Shown: positions 2,132 through 17,799 of the stretch, piece after piece
Position numbering within the stretch: the first letter of the stretch is position 1
Layout of the letters: every line of letters starts with the position of its first letter
From: a virus
Taxonomy: Duplodnaviria > Heunggongvirae > Uroviricota > Caudoviricetes
Length of the DNA stretch: 17,799 bases
IMG/VR virus record: IMGVR_UViG_2713896905_000007
Coordinates: 1 to 17,799 of that record
Direction: 5' to 3' (one strand)
Program-made: the position numbers and the translations under genes
The notes under the pieces: model-generated
Databases searched by the model: none
The model's input: the letters and a program-made list of their open reading frames with translations, nothing else
Told to the model about the DNA's origin: nothing

Positions 2132-3184
2132 TTATTTCCCCACCAGTTCACTTACCTCTTTCACCGTCTGATTAAACCGCTCTGACTCAAGTTCAACACC
2201 TAACGCCCGACGCCCCAGCGCCATTGCTGCTTTTATTGTGGAACCGGATCCCATAAAAAAATCAGCAACCAGATCACCAGGTCGACTACTGGCATTGATT
2301 ATTTGCCGGAGCATATCCGCCGGTTTCTCGCACGGATGTTTACCCGGGTAGAACTGAACGGGTTTATGCGTCCAGACATCGGTATAAGGCACGGAGACTG
2401 ATACGGAGAAATAGCGCCGGAGAGATTTAAACTCATCCAGCAATTCAGAATATTTGCGATTCAGTGAATCATAAGATGCCACCAGCTGGTGGTGTGGTTG
2501 TTCCAGTTGTTGTTCCTGAAACTTCTCTGCCGCTATACGGGAAAAGAGTGCCTGTAACTTCCGATAGTCAGCCTCATTCGGCAACTGCCACTGACTGGCA
2601 CCAAACCAGTGGGAAACCATATTTTTCTTACCTGTGGCTTCGGCAATTTGTTTTGCCGTTATACCCAGTTCGGCACGAGCATCCCTGAAATACGATATCA
2701 GCGGTGCCATTATGTGCTGTTTGAGTTCCCTTTCTTTTGCCGCATAGCCGTCACTTTTGCCGCGATATGGCCCCTGGTAATGTTCAGCAAACAGAACGCG
2801 CTCTGTTGCCGGGAAATACGCCCGCAGGCTTTCCTTGTTGCACCTGTTCCAGCGTCCTGACGGCTTCGCCCAGATAATGTGATTCAGCACATTAAAGCGT
2901 TCACGCATCATAATTTCGGTGTCAGATGCCAGGCGATGACCACAGAACAGGTAAAGACTTCCGGCGGGCTTCAGTACCCGCCAGAACTGCGCCAGACACT
3001 GGTCCAGCCATTTCAGGTAATCATCGTCCCCCTTCCACTGGTTATCCCAGCTCTCGGGCTTCACTTTAAAGTATGGCGGGTCTGTGACTATCAGATCGAC
3101 AGAGTTTTCCGGTAAGGTCTGGATAAATTCCAGGCAATCAGCGTTGATTAACTCACAACTGGATATTTTTACAGTATTAGCCAT
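2132..3184 (-). CDS. DNA amino-methyltransferase (beta-class N6-adenine or N4-cytosine), 350 aa, no cognate restriction gene in window
   Basis: Catalytic DPPY motif near the N-terminus (LIVTDPPYF) and an AdoMet-binding FxGxG motif near the C-terminus (DFFMGSGSTIKAA). This motif order is the beta-class arrangement. No nuclease gene is adjacent. Confidence 0.85.
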   Translation of the reverse strand: MANTVKISSCELINADCLEFIQTLPENSVDLIVTDPPYFKVKPESWDNQWKGDDDYLKWLDQCLAQFWRVLKPAGSLYLFCGHRLASDTEIMMRERFNVLNHIIWAKPSGRWNRCNKESLRAYFPATERVLFAEHYQGPYRGKSDGYAAKERELKQHIMAPLISYFRDARAELGITAKQIAEATGKKNMVSHWFGASQWQLPNEADYRKLQALFSRIAAEKFQEQQLEQPHHQLVASYDSLNRKYSELLDEFKSLRRYFSVSVSVPYTDVWTHKPVQFYPGKHPCEKPADMLRQIINASSRPGDLVADFFMGSGSTIKAAMALGRRALGVELESERFNQTVKEVSELVGK

Positions 3185-3334
3185 AGATCAATAAGCGCTT
3201 CTCTGATAGGCTCATACCGCTTTTGCGCAAAGCAGATGGGCCTGAGGTTTGCTTGTGACCCCAACGCATGAGCAGATGGCTGGCAGGTGCCGCTAACACC
3301 CACCAGCCGCCCATTACCACAAATTAAAAAGCCT

Positions 3335-3514
3335 TCACTGCGGAAAGCGTCTGTAACAACCGAACTGATAATCTGCCAGACCCGCCATAACAAGCTGGGT
3401 CAGTATTAACTGGCAGCGTTCGCGTGAAAGGTAAGTATTCTGCGCAATCTCCCCGACGGTCGCCGGTTCGGTGACGCTTAATTCATTAAACACCACTCTG
3501 GCGGTTTCGGTCAT
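3335..3514 (-). CDS. Hypothetical small protein (59 aa) with winged-helix-like segment, below the ORF-track cutoff
   Basis: My own translation of the minus strand gives MTETARVVFNELSVTEPATVGEIAQNTYLSRERCQLILTQLVMAGLADYQFGCYRRFPQ*, with AGGA just upstream of the ATG. Lies between the tR'-like terminator and the methylase. A continuing out-of-frame ORF (3169-3393) suggests a possible frameshifted longer gene. Confidence 0.35.
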   Translation of the reverse strand: MTETARVVFNELSVTEPATVGEIAQNTYLSRERCQLILTQLVMAGLADYQFGCYRRFPQ

Positions 3515-3654
3515 ATCCTGCTGTTTTAGCAGTCTTTTTTCCTTTTCTGGTTAACGTGACATACCAATAACTCTTGTCGAAAAGGCCAGCAAGCTGAAAG
3601 ACCAGTATTCGCAACCACCAGCGCGTTTAACGTCCTGTGCTGTTTTTCGGACAC

Positions 3655-3677
3655 AAAAAAACCCGCCTGGTGGCGGG
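3655..3677 (-). terminator. Rho-independent terminator on the minus strand, candidate tR' of the late operon
   Basis: Minus-strand reading CCCGCC-ACCA-GGCGGG followed by TTTTTTT (plus coordinates 3662-3677 stem, 3655-3661 U-tract). Positioned about 85 nt downstream of the Q stop and upstream of the late genes. Confidence 0.7.
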
Positions 3678-3726
3678 CTGTAAAAATTCTTCTAACATCA
3701 GGCATAAAACGCCCATCGTTAGTGCG

Positions 3727-6841: not shown

Positions 6842-6997
6842 TTACTCCTCAGGTTCGTAAGCTGTGAAGACAGCGACCTCCGTCTGGCCGGTTCGGATTC
6901 GTACCTCGCAGAGGTCTTTCCTCGTTACCAGTGCCGTCACTATGACGGTTAAACAGATGACGATCAGGGCGATTAACATCGCCTTTTGCTGCTTCAT
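6842..6997 (-). CDS. hokD: Hok-family type I toxin (HokD/RelF-like), 51 aa
   Basis: MKQQKAMLIALIVICLTVIVTALVTRKDLCEVRIRTGQTEVAVFTAYEPEE matches recalled HokD/RelF. Single TM segment and conserved Cys. Confidence 0.9.
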   Translation of the reverse strand: MKQQKAMLIALIVICLTVIVTALVTRKDLCEVRIRTGQTEVAVFTAYEPEE

Positions 6998-7054
6998 AGC
7001 CTGCTTCTCCTTGACCTTTCGGTCCGTAAGAGGCAATCTATATGTGACGAGCAT
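6842..7054 (-). CDS. mok-like overlapping reading frame (70 aa) that includes hok
   Basis: ATG at 7054 with GAGG 8 nt upstream. The frame reads through into hok, as mok does in hok/sok loci. Confidence 0.5.
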   Translation of the reverse strand: MLVTYRLPLTDRKVKEKQAMKQQKAMLIALIVICLTVIVTALVTRKDLCEVRIRTGQTEVAVFTAYEPEE

Positions 7055-7140
7055 ATAGGGGCCTCACTTCGATTTATAGTCGGGTGGGGCTTTTATCTAT
7101 CTGCCGTTGGTGTTCATGCCTGAGGCAGATAGCCTCAAGC

Positions 7141-7168
7141 ACCCGCAGCAATTCTACTTAACTCTCCT
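7141..7168 (-). promoter_or_regulatory. Candidate hok mRNA promoter
   Basis: Minus strand TTGCGG-16 nt-TAGAAT. The predicted transcription start coincides with the 5' element (plus 7122-7135) that is complementary to the 3' element at plus 6778-6792. Confidence 0.4.
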
Positions 7169-11094: not shown

Positions 11095-11596
11095 AATTCC
11101 ATCCGGCTTTTTGTTGATATTGCTGACGATACGCATGCTTGAAAGCAATAGCTTTTTCTATAAGCTCGTCAGTCTCACGCTCCACAACAGCGGGATCTGC
11201 CAAAAGCAGACCGGACTCCACCACATCGCCATATTCTTTGTTTAACCCGGCGATCATGTATGTAATGCTTTTTCCGTCAGTAATTTCACGATACAACCTG
11301 AAATCACTTATCCGGATAGCCTCCATAATTGCCGGAATCAGCGCCGTGAATTTTTCCCGCTTATCCCTGGTATCAATAGCTTTCCAGCGTTCGAATATCT
11401 TCACCCGGTTGACGCCCAGCGCCCGTTGATCAACCGCGCCATCATCAAACGTGACGCGTTGAACATCGATGTTCGGGCGTTCTTTCAGAGCCCAGAATGC
11501 TTCCGTGATTAATATCGTCGCCTGCTCCTGTGTCATTCCTGGTCGGCATACCCAGGCATCCAGAGCCTCACAAACCTGTTCAGGGGTGATTTTCAT
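11075..11596 (-). CDS. Early protein in the cII position (possible CII-like or YdaT-like regulator), 173 aa
   Basis: ATG at 11596 overlapping the dicC-like stop. Lies between the cro-like and O-like genes. Functional call is by position only. Confidence 0.5.
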   Translation of the reverse strand: MKITPEQVCEALDAWVCRPGMTQEQATILITEAFWALKERPNIDVQRVTFDDGAVDQRALGVNRVKIFERWKAIDTRDKREKFTALIPAIMEAIRISDFRLYREITDGKSITYMIAGLNKEYGDVVESGLLLADPAVVERETDELIEKAIAFKHAYRQQYQQKAGWNYESSFC

Positions 11597-11807
11597 TGTT
11601 CAACCGCCCCGCCCGCTTTGCCTTACGATATTCGTCATAAACTTTGGGGTCGTACTGAAGTTCCCCGCCGGATGCCTCTTGCAGGCGCATCGCGCGACCT
11701 TCAGGAACAAGTTCCCCCCATGCAGCAACACTTGCCAGTTTCACTCCTGCGGCATTGGCAAGTTTTGTTTTGCTGCCAAAAAAAGTAATTGCGTCAACTT
11801 TAAGCAT
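11580..11807 (-). CDS. dicC: Cro-like HTH regulator (DicC-like), 75 aa
   Basis: Resembles recalled DicC (LK.DA..FGSKTKLA.AAG..LAS...W...VPEGRAMRLQEASGGELQYDPKVYDEYRK.KRAGRLNNENH). ATG at 11807 preceded by GAGGGGG. Divergent from the repressor gene. Confidence 0.8.
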   Translation of the reverse strand: MLKVDAITFFGSKTKLANAAGVKLASVAAWGELVPEGRAMRLQEASGGELQYDPKVYDEYRKAKRAGRLNNENHP

Positions 11808-11820
11808 CAAAACCCCCTCT

Positions 11821-11838
11821 TGTTAGATATTCCTAACA
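11821..11838. promoter_or_regulatory. Operator palindrome TGTTAG-N6-CTAACA between dicC-like and dicA-like genes
   Basis: tgttagatattcctaaca read directly. Overlaps the divergent promoter region (minus-strand TTGACT at about 11850-11855). Confidence 0.6.
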
Positions 11839-11887
11839 GTAATGTGCACGGGATACCTAAGTCAAGAAAAATTAGAATTACCTAACT

Positions 11888-12295
11888 ATGGATACAAGAA
11901 CCCTAGGCCAGCGAGTTCTGGCACGACGAAAAGAATTACGCCTAACACAACGAGAAGCTGCACGCCTCGCTGGGGTAGCTCACGTCACAATTTCACAATG
12001 GGAAAGAGACGAAACCCAACCGGTCGGGAAGCGGTTATTTGCTTTAGCTGATGCGCTGAAGTGCTCGCCTACATGGCTAATGTTTGGTGACGAAGACAAG
12101 GCACCAGTGCCAGCACAAGAACTTCATGTGGAAACCGAGTTAACTCCCAGCCACAAAGAATTGATCGAATTATTCGATGCTCTTCCCTCCTCCGAGCAGG
12201 AAGCCTTACTGTCTGAAATGCGCGCAAGAGTAGAGAATTTCAATAAACTCTTCGAAGAAATGCTTAAAGCACGTAAAAACAAATCAATAAAATAA
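11888..12295 (+). CDS. dicA: Prophage repressor, DicA-like (HTH XRE family), 135 aa
   Basis: Same length as DicA and strong similarity to recalled DicA (HTH ...TQREAARLAGVAHVTISQWERDETQPVGKRLFALADALKCSPTWLMFGDEDK..., C-terminal ...EMRARVENFNKLFEEMLKAR). Divergent from the cro-like gene. Confidence 0.85.
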   Translation: MDTRTLGQRVLARRKELRLTQREAARLAGVAHVTISQWERDETQPVGKRLFALADALKCSPTWLMFGDEDKAPVPAQELHVETELTPSHKELIELFDALPSSEQEALLSEMRARVENFNKLFEEMLKARKNKSIK

Positions 12296-12331
12296 CTCTC
12301 CTTTCAGATACTTAGATTCCCTCACTCTTTT

Positions 12332-12385
12332 TGTTAGATCAATCTAACAAAAAACACTTGCCACATTTGTTAGGTTATTCTAAAT
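12332..12385. promoter_or_regulatory. Operator pair and pL-like promoter downstream of the repressor gene
   Basis: Palindrome ttgttagat-ca-atctaacaa at 12331-12350 and a half-matching site tgttaggttattctaa at 12368-12383. Plus-strand TTGCCA (12358-12363)-17 nt-TAAATT (12381-12386) overlaps the second site. Confidence 0.5.
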
Positions 12386-12463
12386 TAATCTCCATCAAGA
12401 CACCGCACGGTGTTCTCAGCAAACAGTTCCGCTACCCCGGCGTTAAGGGGAAATGAGGTCAGC

Positions 12464-12619
12464 ATGGATACTATCGATCTTGGCAACAACGAATCTCTGG
12501 TGTACGGCGTGTTTCCCAACCAGGACGGCACATTCACCGCGATGACGTATACCAAAAGCAAAACGTTTAAAACCGAAAATGGTGCCCGTCGCTGGCTGGA
12601 AAGAAACTCAGGTGAGTGA
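12464..12619 (+). CDS. ydfA: YdfA-like small protein, 51 aa
   Basis: ATG at 12464 with GAGG 6 nt upstream. Length and position after dicA match ydfA of Qin. Identity is by position and length only. Confidence 0.6.
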   Translation: MDTIDLGNNESLVYGVFPNQDGTFTAMTYTKSKTFKTENGARRWLERNSGE

Positions 12620-12620
12620 T

Positions 12621-12749
12621 ATGGATTTCGACACAATCATGAAAAAGGCTTACGAAGAATACTTCGAAGGCCTTGCCGAAGGCGAAGAAACTCTCAGCTT
12701 CAGCGAATTTAAACAGGCGCTTTCCAGTTCGGCAAAATCTAACGGCTGA
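12621..12749 (+). CDS. ydfB: YdfB-like small protein, 42 aa (below ORF-track cutoff)
   Basis: My own translation: MDFDTIMKKAYEEYFEGLAEGEETLSFSEFKQALSSSAKSNG*. ATG lies 1 nt after the upstream stop, with GGTGAG upstream. Length and position match ydfB. Confidence 0.55.
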   Translation: MDFDTIMKKAYEEYFEGLAEGEETLSFSEFKQALSSSAKSNG

Positions 12750-12778
12750 TAAGCGAAACAACACCGCGAGGAATCAGT

Positions 12779-12997
12779 ATGCAGAAACGAGAACCCGTCA
12801 TCATCGCGCCAGACTATACCGATGATGAACTTTATGAGTGGATGCACCAGAAAATTAAGGCAGCGCAGAACCTGAAATGGGCCAATGAAGCCAGGGCTAA
12901 GCAGGCTGAAAATCTGTCCGCTCTGGAGCAGGATATCACCAGGCTGGAAAAAGCAGCGGCATTAAGCATTGCCAGAATGATTACATACCCGCGTTAA
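12779..12997 (+). CDS. ydfC: YdfC-like small protein, 72 aa
   Basis: ATG at 12779 with GAGGA upstream. Length and position match ydfC. Coiled-coil-like sequence. Confidence 0.6.
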   Translation: MQKREPVIIAPDYTDDELYEWMHQKIKAAQNLKWANEARAKQAENLSALEQDITRLEKAAALSIARMITYPR

Positions 12998-13338
12998 TAG
13001 CTAACCAACGAAGCTAAGGTTGGTAATTAAGGAGTTCTCCACGGGTGAGGTGGAGTGCGTGCGCCGGACACGGGTGAGCATCCGGCACTGACAGTTTACT
13101 GAAAGGATATTTCCCTGAAAAGTCAGGGCATAACGCGAAAGCGCACGGCGAGGTTTCTAGTTCACAGATAGCCTGTCGTTAAATTTTCGTCGACCGTGCG
13201 CTTCCGGTTGTGGCAATCCGCGAAATGGCGCGGCGGTAAGTATGGCGGGGTTATTCCTTCCCCCGTTGAGGACACCGGGTTGTCAGGTTGACCATACGCT
13301 TAAGTGACAACCACGCTGCAACGCCCTCTGTTATCAAT

Positions 13339-13396
13339 TTTCTGGTGACGTTTGGCGGTATCAGTTTTACTACGTGACTGCTCTGCCGCCATTTTT
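13339..13396 (+). ncRNA. dicF: DicF small regulatory RNA with terminator-like 3' hairpin and U-tract
   Basis: tttctggtgacgtttggcggtatcagttttactacgtgactgctctgccgcc followed by attttt is near-identical to my recollection of E. coli DicF (about 53 nt). Lies downstream of the ydfABC-like genes as in Qin. Confidence 0.8.
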
Positions 13397-13570
13397 AAAG
13401 TGAATTTTGTGATGCGGTGAATGCGGCTGAGCGCACGCGGAACAGTTAAAACTAAAAACAGTGTTATGGGTGGATTCTCTGTATCCGGCGTTAATTGTTA
13501 ACTGGTTAACGTCACCTGGAGGCACCGGGCACCGCATCAACAAAGTTCATTTGTAAAAATGGAGATAATT

Positions 13571-13792
13571 ATGATTGCTCATCACTTCGGAACTGATGAG
13601 ATTCCTCGTCAGTGCGTGACTCCCGGTGATTATGTTATTCATAAAGGAAGAACATATATTGCTTCGGTAAACAACATTAAAAAACAACGGCTCTATATTC
13701 GTGATTTTTCCACACAACACTGTATTAAGGAAACCATGATTAAAGTCTTCCTTGGTCGTGATGGTTTACCTGTAAAAGCAGAGTCATGGTGA
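13571..13792 (+). CDS. Hypothetical 73-aa protein in the dicB slot downstream of DicF
   Basis: ATG at 13571 with GGAG at 6-nt spacing; an upstream in-frame ATG at 13559 lacks a ribosome-binding site. Not recognisably DicB by my recollection. Confidence 0.55.
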
Positions 13793-13915
13793 GCAGTAAT
13801 AAAATAACTGCCACAATACGACATTCAGCTTAATGAATACATCAGATTTGATTCTTATATGTCAGCAATGGCAGGGATTTGTTCACCCTTAAATCTGTAA
13901 TGAGGTTAAAACAAA

Positions 13916-16381
13916 ATGAGTAAAGTCTTTATTTGCGCCGCCATTCCGGACGAACAGGCAACAGCAGAAGGCGCTAAACCTGTGGCCACTGCCATTGAAG
14001 CAGGCGACGAACGCCGGGCAAGAGCCAAATTTAGCTGGTTATTTCTGGAACAATACCCGGAAGCTCAGGACTGTGCTTATAAATTTCTTGTCTGCGAGGA
14101 TAAACCCGGCATGGCCCGCCCTGCTCTCGATTCCTGGGATTCCGAATATATGCAGGAAAACCGCTGGAATGAGGAGTCGGATTCCTTTGTTCCGGTCGCC
14201 CCTGAACCGGATACAGAAACTGTTAACTTTAATCAGTTATCTGAAGACAAGCGGGCTGCTGTCCTTGTCAGGTTCGGTACACATGAAAACATCACCGTGG
14301 ATATGGTCATCAATGCAAGCGGGCTTCTCGGCGATGACGAGATGACGACTTTTGATGGACACCTCACTGAAGCAATTATCAGGACTAAAGAAATTAACGC
14401 CATGTATCCTGAGCGTCAGACTGAGTACATCAACGACGCCAGACGTGATTTAAAACCAACAGCCAAATGGCCCGACGTTCAGGCGTATTTTCTCGAACGT
14501 AAAAAACGCATGGAAAAGGAGCGCAAAGAAGGTGGAGCATATAATTCCGTCGTCGATCTTGCCCGCGCCAGAGTCAACCGGCAAGGCACTGAAAACTCTG
14601 CAGGAAAAACTGGCTCCGTAACTGCTGTCATTCGTCGCGAATACAGGCAGACATGGAAAACACTGGATGACGAACTGGCCTACGCTCTCTGGCCTGGTGA
14701 TGTGGATGCCGGAAACATTGACGGCAGCATCCATCGCTGGGCAAAAAATGAAGTTATCGACAACGACCGCGAAGACTGGAAGCGTATCTCGGCATCAATG
14801 CGCAAACAGCCTGATGCCCTTCGCTACGACCGCCAGACTATTTTTGGCCTTGTCCGTGAACGTCCGATCGACATTCACAAAGACTCTGTGGCACTGAACA
14901 AATACATTACTGAATACCTGACGACAAAAGGCGTGTTTGAAGATGAAGAAACGGATCAGAGTCCTGCTGATGTTCTCCGGTCGTCAGCAACACAAACTGA
15001 TGCAGTGGAAACAGAAGTATCTGGCACCCAAAAAAATGAAAGCGCACTGGAAGCTGAACCATCTGTAGAGCGTGAAGGACCGTTCTACTTCCTCTTTACC
15101 GATAAGGACGGCGAAAAATACGGTCGCGCAAACAAACTGTCTGGTCTGAATAAGGCGCTGGCTGCCGGGGCTACTGAAATCACCAAAGAAGAATACGTCG
15201 CCCGAAAAAATGGCACATACACAGGCTTACCGCAAAATACCAATGCCGCACAAAACTCTGAACAACCAGAGCCGGTAAAAGTTAACACGGTCGAAACAAA
15301 TAAAAAAATGGAGACAGAAAATCTGCCTGATGCCGACAAAGTGCTTGCTGCATCACGCGGTGAATTTATTGAAGGAATTAGCGACCCGAATGATCCGAAG
15401 TGGGTTGAGGGGATCCAGACTCGCGATTCTGTGTACCAGAATCAGCAAGAAACGGAACAGAACGACCAGAAAGCGGAACAAAACAGTCCGGATGCGCAAC
15501 AAAATGGACCAGAAGTGCAACAGTATGAGCCAACAGCACAACAGGAGACTGAAAAAAGCTGCAATACTTGCGGCCGGACTGGCGGTGGAAAATGTCCTGA
15601 CTACGGGCCTGTTATGGGTAACACAACATATCAGGAAACATTCGATGAAGAAAATCTGGCTGAAAAAGATTCGGAGAAAATGGAAAGCACTGAGCATTCT
15701 CGTGAAGAGAGCGCTGGTGACGCTCAGCATGGCAATAGCAGTGATGAAACTGGCGAGACGGCAAATCCCTTAATTGTGATGAACGGTCATCATAAAATCA
15801 CATCCACCAGCGGAACGTGTGAACATCTGATGATCGACCTTGAAACAATGGGAACTAATACCAGTGCGCCCATCGTGGCTATTGGTGCAGTATTCTTCAA
15901 CCCACAGACAGGAGAAATCGGGCCGGTATTTTATATCGTTATCAGTCTGGTTGATGCAATGAACACAGGCGCGGTTCCTGATGGCGGCACTATCGAATGG
16001 TGGCTGGCGCAGTCCAGCGAGGCCAGATCTGCAATTTTAACAGACCAGACAAAACTGAAAGATGGACTGTTGTTGTTTCGGGAGTTCATCAACGAACACT
16101 CAGATGAAAAATTCGTTCAGGTATGGGGAAATGGCGTAGCTTTCGATAACGCAATTTTACGCACTTCATACGAACGTCTGAACATCCCCTGTCCGTGGCA
16201 ATACTGCAACGATCGCGATGTACGCACAATCGTTGAGCTGGGGAAAGCCATAGACTTCGATGCCAGAACGGCTATTCCATTCGAAGGTGAGCGCCATAAT
16301 GCACTTGATGACGCCCGTTACCAGGCAAAATACGTTTCAGTTATCTGGCAAAAACTGATCCCGAGTCAGGCTGATTTTTAA
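13916..16381 (+). CDS. Large prophage protein (821 aa): N-terminal region of unknown function, acidic Q/E-rich linker with Cys motif, C-terminal DEDDh-type 3'-5' exonuclease domain
   Basis: ATG at 13916 with GAGG upstream. C-terminal motifs MIDLETMG (Exo I), [12 protein letters not shown] (Exo II) and [10 protein letters not shown] (Exo III, H-x4-D) define a DnaQ-like DEDDh exonuclease. Occupies the exo/recE position between the early-left genes and xis-int. Confidence 0.8.
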
Positions 16382-16442
16382 TGTTCAACCGTCGCCAGTT
16401 GTCGTTGATATTCTGCAACTGGCGCGTTCCGGAGTGATAGCC

Positions 16443-16712
16443 ATGAGCGAACAGTACCTGATAACGCTCGACGAGTGGAAACCAAAACGGTTCAGTCTCC
16501 CAATAACAAACACTACCCTGGTGAAATACGGAAAACTAGGATACATCGTTCCAAGACCACAAAAAATTCGTGGGCGTTGGCTGATAGATCGCCGAGCAGT
16601 ATTTGTTGGGCCTGGTGAAACGGGAATTGCGCCGGAAATTCATACTGGCGATGATGATGCACTGAAGGAGGTTTTAACTCATGTCACCGAGGCCACGAAA
16701 AAACAGCACTGA
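16443..16712 (+). CDS. xis: Excisionase-like protein, 89 aa
   Basis: Small gene immediately upstream of and overlapping int. ATG at 16443 with GGAG at 8-nt spacing. Confidence 0.6.
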   Translation: MSEQYLITLDEWKPKRFSLPITNTTLVKYGKLGYIVPRPQKIRGRWLIDRRAVFVGPGETGIAPEIHTGDDDALKEVLTHVTEATKKQH

Positions 16713-17799
16713 CGTAGCCGGTCTTTACGAAAAGTTTGATCGCAGAACTGGCAGAGTTTACTACCAGTATAAAAATCCTGTGACTGGAAAATTTCACGGA
16801 CTCGGAACAGACAAAGGTAAGGCAGAAAAAATCGCTTCCACAGCCAATCAGCGAATAGCTTCAGCAGAAGCTGAATATTTCATGCGCAAAATTGATGAAA
16901 GTCCGTCAGCAACAAAACGTCGGGGTATCAGATTAAAGGCATGGGTTGATCGATATCTGAAAATACAGGACACGCGACTGAAAAATGGAGATATTGCAGC
17001 TACAACTCACAAAGAAAAAACTCGAATGGCTGCATACCTGGTTTCCCGTCTGGGAAACCACCCATTGAAAGAACTGGAAGTAAGAGACTTTGCATTAATA
17101 CTGGATGAGTGGCTGGATAAAGACATGGTCAGCACAGCGAGAGTAAATCGTGGATTATGGGTTGATATTTATAAAGAAGCACAGCATGCAGGAGAAGTTC
17201 CTCCTGGATGGAATCCTCCGGAGGCTACCCGTAAACCGATCCCTAAAGTAACCAGAGCCAGACTCACCCTGGAAGACTGGCAAAAAATTTACAACGCAAC
17301 GCCTGAAAAACACTTTATCCGTAACGCAATGCTTCTTGCGATTGTTACTGGTCAGCGCCGTGATGACATTTGCCACATGCGTTTTTCAGATGTGTGGAAC
17401 GAACACTTGCATATCACCCAGGGAAAAACCGGAATGCGTCTGGCGTTACCGCTTACACTACGCTGTGATGCCATTGGGATAACGTTAAAAGAAGTTATTG
17501 ATGGGTGCCGAGACAGAATATTAAGTCCATACCTAATCCATAGTCGGCACCAGAAACAACCGAAGCCGATGAGTAAAGACAACCTGAGCGACTACTTTGC
17601 CAAAGCACGGGATCTGGCTGGAATAATTCCACCAGCAGGAAAAACTCCGCCAACATTTCATGAACAACGCTCTCTATCAGAACGGCTGTACCGTGCACAG
17701 GGTATCGATACAAAAACATTACTAGGGCATAAAGTCCAGGCAACCACCGATCGCTATAACGATACTCGAGGTCAGGAATGGGTTAAGTTGGTTATTTGA
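16681..17799 (+). CDS. int: Tyrosine integrase (lambda Int family), 372 aa, complete, stop at window end
   Basis: Clear similarity to recalled lambda Int (AIVTGQRRDDICHMRFSD; GKTGMRLALP; PPTFHEQRSLSERLY; LLGHK...RYNDTRGQEW). GGAGG upstream of the ATG. Confidence 0.95.
   Translation: MSPRPRKNSTDVAGLYEKFDRRTGRVYYQYKNPVTGKFHGLGTDKGKAEKIASTANQRIASAEAEYFMRKIDESPSATKRRGIRLKAWVDRYLKIQDTRLKNGDIAATTHKEKTRMAAYLVSRLGNHPLKELEVRDFALILDEWLDKDMVSTARVNRGLWVDIYKEAQHAGEVPPGWNPPEATRKPIPKVTRARLTLEDWQKIYNATPEKHFIRNAMLLAIVTGQRRDDICHMRFSDVWNEHLHITQGKTGMRLALPLTLRCDAIGITLKEVIDGCRDRILSPYLIHSRHQKQPKPMSKDNLSDYFAKARDLAGIIPPAGKTPPTFHEQRSLSERLYRAQGIDTKTLLGHKVQATTDRYNDTRGQEWVKLVI

Follow-up and report, generated by a model that had tools for sequence, protein, structure and literature searches.

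The closest described relative of the gene analyzed here is kilR of the Rac prophage of Escherichia coli K-12 (b1352; Conter, Bouché & Dassain 1996; Marepalli et al. 2025, PMC12482147), which also encodes a protein of 73 residues. As summarized in later accounts of Conter et al. 1996 (PMC3961180, PMC12482147), Rac kil blocks FtsZ-ring formation and causes filamentation, and the statements of KilR function in PMC12482147, PMC5793797, PMC10798246 and PMC3961180 each cite that study. At low expression K-12 KilR disrupts Z-rings and produces filaments (PMC12482147, PMC5793797), at high dose it delocalizes MreB and yields lemon-shaped or round cells (PMC12482147), and its toxicity is suppressed by extra FtsZ (PMC12482147, PMC5793797). 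Removal of the C-terminal 12 residues, an unstructured tail, abolishes toxicity, and a high-confidence AlphaFold3 model of the protein has been published (PMC12482147). With respect to expression, kilR is normally silent in K-12 (PMC12482147); it is silenced by Rho/NusG and comes on when OxyS represses nusG, and this induction halts division for a time, which helps DNA repair (PMC5793797, PMC10798246). Several kilR alleles have also been catalogued in O157:H7 (PMC12711010).

Lambda Kil is likewise part of the pL operon, where it precedes the recombination genes, and it causes FtsZ-ring loss and filamentation (PMC3961180); according to the literature it has no sequence relationship to KilR (PMC3961180, PMC12482147). 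Whereas lambda Kil needs ZipA and spares MreB, KilR is ZipA-independent, remaining toxic in ftsA* delta-zipA cells, and disturbs MreB (PMC12482147). In the Qin dicBF operon (ydfABC-dicF-dicB-ydfD; Faubladier 1990; Ragunathan et al. 2023, PMC10448788), the promoter dicBp is repressed by DicA, and a 1146-nt ydfABC-dicF transcript is found together with a 1608-nt read-through transcript via dicB-ydfD. The DicB protein works through MinC, whereas KilR is independent of known FtsZ regulators and ZipA and also affects MreB (PMC3961180, PMC12482147). We compare these systems with an operon in the window, by which we mean the whole 17,799-nt stretch of viral DNA that was analyzed, where a 73-residue open reading frame follows the small RNA DicF. 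Conter in 1996 and Faubladier & Bouché in 1994 are said to have already linked dicF-like sequences to Rac kil.

Results

The operon in the window runs in the order DicA-like repressor, promoter, ydfA-ydfB-ydfC, DicF, leader, kil, exonuclease, xis, int. Its first gene (11888-12295) encodes a DicA-like HTH repressor of 135 residues, assigned by its domain match; a Cro-like gene was also confirmed by Pfam. Between this repressor gene and ydfA lies a promoter-like site on the + strand (TTGCCA-17-TAAATT, 12358-12386), a weak match from a consensus scan only, which is a candidate equivalent of dicBp/pL. Its position is analogous to that of dicBp in Qin (PMC10448788), and promoter-like matches are not enriched in the region (2 found versus 3.0 expected from shuffles). 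The following genes, all on the + strand, are homologues of ydfA (12464-12619; Pfam DUF1391, PHROG 751; 51 of 51 residues, or 100%, identical), ydfB (12621-12749; PHROG 2061; 39/42, 93%) and ydfC (12779-12997; PHROG 1744; 68/72, 94%), with the PGAP-named genes of E. coli CE0007a serving as the reference for the identities. The DicF small RNA with its terminator hairpin (13340-13391, +) matches Rfam RF00039 over its full length (1-52) at 70.2 bits, against a gathering threshold of 48. The conservation of ydfA/B/C-like genes and DicF that had been proposed in the initial annotation is borne out by Pfam, PHROGs, the CE0007a identities and the RF00039 score alike.

Downstream of DicF, a structured and conserved leader, the 5′ UTR of kil, occupies positions 13392-13570 (+), as delineated by leader alignments, folding and a match to RF02076. 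It is followed by kil itself (13571-13792, +), by a Rac-derived cassette end of approximately 15 nt (13793-13807, +) that resembles the start of ydaE without its ATG, and by a right flank (13841-13915, +; alignment columns ~711-792) that is common to dicB-ydfD prophages and runs into the exonuclease gene. The exonuclease, the next gene of the operon (13916-16381, +; 821 residues), matches Pfam PF16473 at E 5.7e-67 and PHROG 2082 over its full length. Its N-terminal and central part is RecE-like (partial match to NF007259), and its C-terminus is a Rv2179c-like 3′-5′ exoribonuclease domain (PF16473). The left arm, comprising exonuclease, xis and int, is intact in the window. The exonuclease also has a fusion-like appearance. 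Only 591 of its 821 residues are identical to those of its CE0007a counterpart.

Regarding the kil gene, the reading frame at 13571-13792 (+) comprises 73 codons and a stop, and its translation is exactly the protein quoted previously. A Shine-Dalgarno GGAG (13561-13564, +) lies 6 nt before the ATG at 13571, in agreement with the good ribosome-binding site noted earlier, and both the GGAG and the AUG are predicted to be unpaired, with P(unpaired) of 0.93-0.98 in the ensemble. An alternative start at ATG 13559 would extend the protein to 77 residues and is without a Shine-Dalgarno.

Among the databases compared, the family of this protein is covered only by NCBIfam and PHROGs. Specifically, the protein matches NCBIfam NF008465 (PRK11354, 'FtsZ inhibitor protein') at 140 bits (E 1.9e-41; curated cutoff 92 bits), with residues 1-73 aligned to profile positions 1-73, and PHROG 294 ('Kil protein for bacterial septation inhibition') at E 7.9e-33. 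A gapless BLASTP alignment with K-12 Rac KilR, whose reference sequence was taken from a Keio-strain genome, shows 59 of 73 residues to be identical (81%) and 67 of 73 to be positives (92%; E 2e-47). Residues 1-22 and 56-73, the latter including the C-terminal 12-residue tail, are the same in both proteins, and of the 14 positions that differ, 9 fall within residues 45-55. The dN/dS relative to K-12 kilR is 0.155, which indicates that kil codes for protein and is subject to purifying selection apart from a single variable patch. Together with the full-length family matches, this value shows that the reading frame did not arise by chance. Codons 45-55 also vary in the kilR allele of a Rac-like prophage (L070), making them a hypervariable patch in an otherwise conserved protein. 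In other genomes the identical protein is annotated as kil or 'Rac prophage Kil protein' (PGAP; E. coli CE0007a) and as 'Kil protein' (phage Evi). The gene order relative to Rac and CE0007a provides the matching family context, with the gene in an early-left operon of lambdoid type and ahead of a recombination exonuclease.

In terms of DicB, BLASTP produced no alignment to O157 DicB (62 residues) at E <= 100, and neither Pfam nor NCBIfam returned a DicB family match. Pfam contains no family that matches the 73-residue protein, the solved structures of the PDB include no sequence relative of it, and the PADLOC defense models gave 0 families at E <= 0.01.

By every sequence-level and context-level comparison made here, the 73-residue protein thus groups with the KilR family and not with DicB. 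The reading frame is kil and encodes a KilR homologue; its setting is the early-left operon of a lambdoid prophage of the Qin/Rac type, and the protein very probably acts as a division inhibitor. The protein, its family, its function and the DicF-kil arrangement are all on record already. The initial annotation was right that the protein bears no relation to DicB, yet its view of an unrelated, uncharacterized protein gives way to a clear KilR homologue (140 bits to NF008465, PHROG 294, 81% identity to K-12 KilR), which is the kind of homology to another characterized protein that it had itself named as speaking against that view. Its suggestion of an alternative host-targeting effector co-expressed with DicF is correct in kind for a division inhibitor, and PADLOC lends no support to its superinfection-exclusion variant. 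The dependence on zipA that it had envisaged is a property of lambda Kil and has been shown experimentally to be absent for KilR (PMC12482147).

We infer that the window allele shares the activity of K-12 KilR, as residues 1-22 and 56-73, including the tail required for toxicity, are identical. Its potency or target preference could nonetheless differ, since 14 of the 73 residues are changed and these cluster at 45-55, within what is predicted to be the beta core. More tentatively, this variable patch may tune the preference of KilR for FtsZ versus MreB.

Existing annotations of the locus call for some care. PGAP misleadingly gives kil the product name 'cell division protein FtsZ', and it also reports a pseudogene, 'DicB, partial' (missing C-terminus), in CE0007a (L001 6162-6245), which corresponds to window positions 13461-13544, inside the leader. 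We considered this pseudogene as a DicB remnant and rejected it, as true dicB begins only past the end of the shared leader. The call is probably an artifact: in dicB prophages the leader frame runs into the dicB ATG, giving over-extended N-terminal DicB models.

With respect to the origin of the kil cassette, 601 bases around kil were compared by BLAST with 5,426 complete E. coli genomes, and the full DicF-leader-kil junction was found in at least 115 of them. Qin-type dicB loci match window positions 13300-13551 (query 1-252) at ~96% and match again from ~13841, and Rac-type loci match 13386-13807 (query 87-508) at ~82%, with Rac homology stopping at query position 508, which is window position 13807. 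In an alignment with the O157 dicF-dicB-ydfD prophage, DicF, ~160 nt of leader and the stretch just before the exonuclease gene are common to both, whereas the cassette at ~13552-13840 differs. The cassette and the last part of the leader are Rac-like up to 13807, including the ~15 nt of the ydaE start that lack its ATG. It is established that the kil cassette (~13552-13807) stands where prophages that are otherwise almost identical have the dicB-ydfD cassette. The protein does therefore occupy the dicB slot of Qin-type prophages, as had been claimed: the flanks are shared, and the cassette alone differs in the alignment. PGAP annotates an 'exonuclease' at the same place after kil and after dicB-ydfD. 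The left junction lies inside the ~160-180-nt leader common to dicB and kilR prophages, and the simplest history suggested by these sequences would be recombination within the shared leader at the left combined with an illegitimate join at the right.

The same 601 bases are 98.7% identical to CE0007a, unlike the wider stretch at 11400-17799 (6.4 kb), for which the best complete E. coli genomes are only ~88-89% identical. The prophage in the window is either a mosaic itself or belongs to a lineage that is rare among complete E. coli genomes.

Compared with K-12 Rac kilR, the window kil has the same Shine-Dalgarno and leader 3′ end (TTCATTTGTAAAAATGGAGATAATTATG) and the same setting in an early-left operon, upstream of a recombination exonuclease. 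The surroundings of the two genes differ on both sides. Upstream, the window kil has full DicF and ydfABC, whereas K-12 Rac carries ydaG/ydaF/sieB there and retains no more than a relic of DicF; downstream, the window kil leads directly to the 821-residue Rv2179c-type exonuclease, whereas K-12 Rac kilR is followed by ydaE-racC-recE. With the Qin dicBF operon the window shares the repressor type, ydfABC, DicF and the leader (96%), together with the logic of a small RNA acting on ftsZ mRNA and a small protein acting on FtsZ assembly, and O157-type dicB relatives additionally share the downstream exonuclease. The window cassette, however, is non-homologous to that of Qin, and the lysis gene ydfD is absent. 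DicB and the window kil hold the same slot after DicF and the leader, which is a positional equivalence only and not homology.

DicF and the leader are also found together in Rac-like prophages. In E. coli FDAARGOS_1059 (L070 2990-3041), a DicF above threshold (55.3 bits) directly precedes leader-kilR-ydaE-racC-recE, and K-12 Rac retains a degenerate DicF-like hairpin relic upstream of the kilR leader (L002 2951-3006; 39.1 bits, E 2.3e-5). DicF-leader-cargo accordingly looks like an old shared module. An 18-mer search of one-genome-per-species data located the leader only in Escherichia and Shigella, the ~50 other matches being due to chance. Three kinds of cargo follow the leader: dicB, kilR, and a gene whose product combines Ash (PF10554) and Rha (PF09669) domains. 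The last of these is present in Shigella flexneri and E. coli loci (L014 at ~3005-3700, as well as L048, L045 and L046), and in L014 the isrK and C4 antisense RNAs come next.

At the sequence level, the identity of the leader is 96% to the stretch between dicF and dicB in O157 and 82% to the region upstream of K-12 Rac kilR. Positions 13392-13585 fold with a minimum free energy of -63.8 kcal/mol (z = -4.56 versus shuffles), and a long closing stem (13392-13419 / 13530-13557) encloses several hairpins. Among these is a hairpin of 10 bp with a 7-nt loop at 13487-13513 (+; GGCGUUAAUU/GGUUAACGUC), in which CGTTAA (13489-13494) pairs with TTAACG (13506-13511); GTTAAC palindromes are found at 13497-13502 and 13505-13510. 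The inverted repeats described ahead of the reading frame in the initial annotation are thus present, although their placement at 13488-13510 was one base off. We also considered these repeats as a private operator of kil and rejected this, as they form one hairpin of a conserved leader common to dicB and Rac kilR. In the Rac version of the hairpin (GACUGUAAUU/GGUUGCAGUC), all 10 pairs are kept, with both sides changed at two positions.

Across 14 distinct leaders, 97.7% of the consensus-fold cells are paired, as compared to 35-46% when the partners are slid by 1-3 columns. Compensatory changes were observed in 3 leader pairs, 2 of which belong to the 13487-13513 hairpin, but on the pair-count measure this number is matched by 149 of 500 shuffles. 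The evidence from covariation is thin because the 14 leader sequences are close relatives, and we regard it as supportive, not decisive.

The leader (13382-13578, +) also aligns with the full length of the 206-nt Rfam model of STnc100 (RF02076), reproducing its closing stem and internal hairpins. At 39.8 bits (E 2e-7 to 1e-5, depending on search size), the match stays below the gathering threshold of 47 bits, and dicB and Rac-like leaders score 39.7 to 44.5 bits (L003 3090-3299; L070 3031-3220). Canonical STnc100 lies downstream of stx2, in the late region, and overlaps the Hfq-bound small RNA EcOnc27 (PMC12370729, PMC12711010). The leader described here has a different location, after DicF and before kil or dicB in the early-left operon. 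It is best regarded as a distant relative of STnc100 and not as a member of that family.

One reading of this resemblance is that 13397-13570 functions chiefly as a small RNA in its own right, of the STnc100 type, with kil expression being incidental. The full-length STnc100 match (E 2e-7, albeit below gathering), the stable fold (z = -4.56), the conservation of the leader before three different cargos with some compensatory changes, and the Hfq-bound nature of canonical STnc100/EcOnc27 downstream of stx2 (PMC12711010) are all consistent with such an RNA. It is nonetheless rather unlikely, given that the score stays under the threshold (39.8 < 47 bits), that no promoter or terminator of its own is predicted for the leader as a separate RNA, and that covariation is limited to 3 pairs in 14 closely related sequences, a level reached by 149 of 500 shuffles. 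Specifically, the consensus scan gave no + strand promoter-like site within 13392-13570, and the one minus-strand match (13501 to 13474) is within chance expectation. A separate small RNA would, moreover, not compete with the assignment of the reading frame as kil.

Returning to the leader as part of the kil transcript, we asked whether it hides the kil ribosome-binding site, with the terminator U-tract paired to the Shine-Dalgarno in the manner of a fourU thermometer. This was rejected for the window and Rac leaders (P(unpaired) 0.93-0.98 for GGAG and AUG). In dicB leaders the Shine-Dalgarno GAGGA is predicted to be paired with the terminator U-tract (P(unpaired) ~0.1), and any such control would therefore be cargo-specific. 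Papers with RNase III cleavage maps contain nothing on the leader.

The 5′ seed of DicF (GGUGACGUU, 13344-13352) is perfectly complementary to AACGUCACC at 13508-13516 in the leader. When the single-stranded DicF seed GGTGACGTT is set against the 9 leader nucleotides AACGTCACC, the site is seen to overlap the 3′ arm of the 13487-13513 hairpin, and the other leaders observed behind a DicF keep the complementarity, G-U wobbles included. It could be due to chance or could reflect an interaction in cis or trans.

Discussion

The arrangement of the operon suggests a mechanism that is modeled largely on Qin. By analogy, the DicA-like 135-residue HTH repressor (11888-12295) would keep the operon off in the lysogen, and on derepression transcription would start near the candidate promoter at 12358-12386. 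DicF would then arise by processing and termination of the operon transcript, and the fraction that reads through the DicF terminator would be translated into Kil and the exonuclease, as for dicB in Qin. Terminator read-through and repression by the DicA-like protein are both taken from Qin in this scheme, and the promoter corresponds to one weak consensus match. FtsZ would consequently be hit twice, with DicF blocking ftsZ translation and Kil blocking FtsZ assembly, and at higher levels Kil may also disturb MreB organization or MreB-dependent elongation. Kil would in this way take over the function of DicB in the same regulatory slot without being homologous to it.

Many Qin/Rac-type prophages are defective, which raises the possibility that kil is an inert relic in a decaying prophage, neither expressed nor functional. 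The K-12 kilR gene is normally silent (PMC12482147), and the start of ydaE just past kil has been lost in the window. Several features of the locus make such decay improbable, however. The reading frame and Shine-Dalgarno are intact, dN/dS is 0.155, the C-terminal tail needed for toxicity is identical to that of K-12 KilR (PMC12482147), the exonuclease, xis and int are intact in the window, and other genomes, along with the sequenced phage Evi, encode exactly the same protein. That the protein is instead an uncharacterized host-targeting effector without known relatives, such as a new toxin or superinfection-exclusion factor, is hardly credible, for although it has no Pfam family, no solved-structure match and no similarity to DicB, it also has no PADLOC defense-family match, and it aligns over its full length with NF008465 above the cutoff and is 81% identical to the well-studied KilR.

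With kil as a KilR homologue, the locus carries little weight as a discovery, since the gene is a known, annotated KilR allele. The DicF-kil arrangement is a recurrent one: phage Evi and Rac-like prophages have it, and so do at least 2% of the complete E. coli genomes. It offers an example of lambdoid mosaicism in which DicB and KilR, non-homologous proteins that are both directed at FtsZ, have been swapped behind the same small RNA and leader. Through this exchange of cassettes behind one small RNA and leader, such prophages therefore keep a paired attack on division by an RNA and a protein.

The ~180-nt leader (13392-13570) may have a role of its own, and a more tentative proposal is that it is an RNA module devoted to regulation in cis, as opposed to a passive linker that simply offers a site for recombination. 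This we regard as doubtful on present evidence, and it would be of moderate interest if true. The leader is conserved before three unrelated, mostly toxic cargos, and always follows a DicF-type terminator hairpin. It is possible that it serves as an RNase III or stability element that gates the yield of cargo from terminator read-through transcripts. Alternatively, it could be a target of DicF itself via seed pairing, in view of the perfect complementarity between 13344-13352 and 13508-13516.

Elsewhere in the window, the minus strand at 6995-7144 carries a hok/sok-type locus, whose sok antitoxin RNA matches Rfam RF01794 at 105.5 bits.
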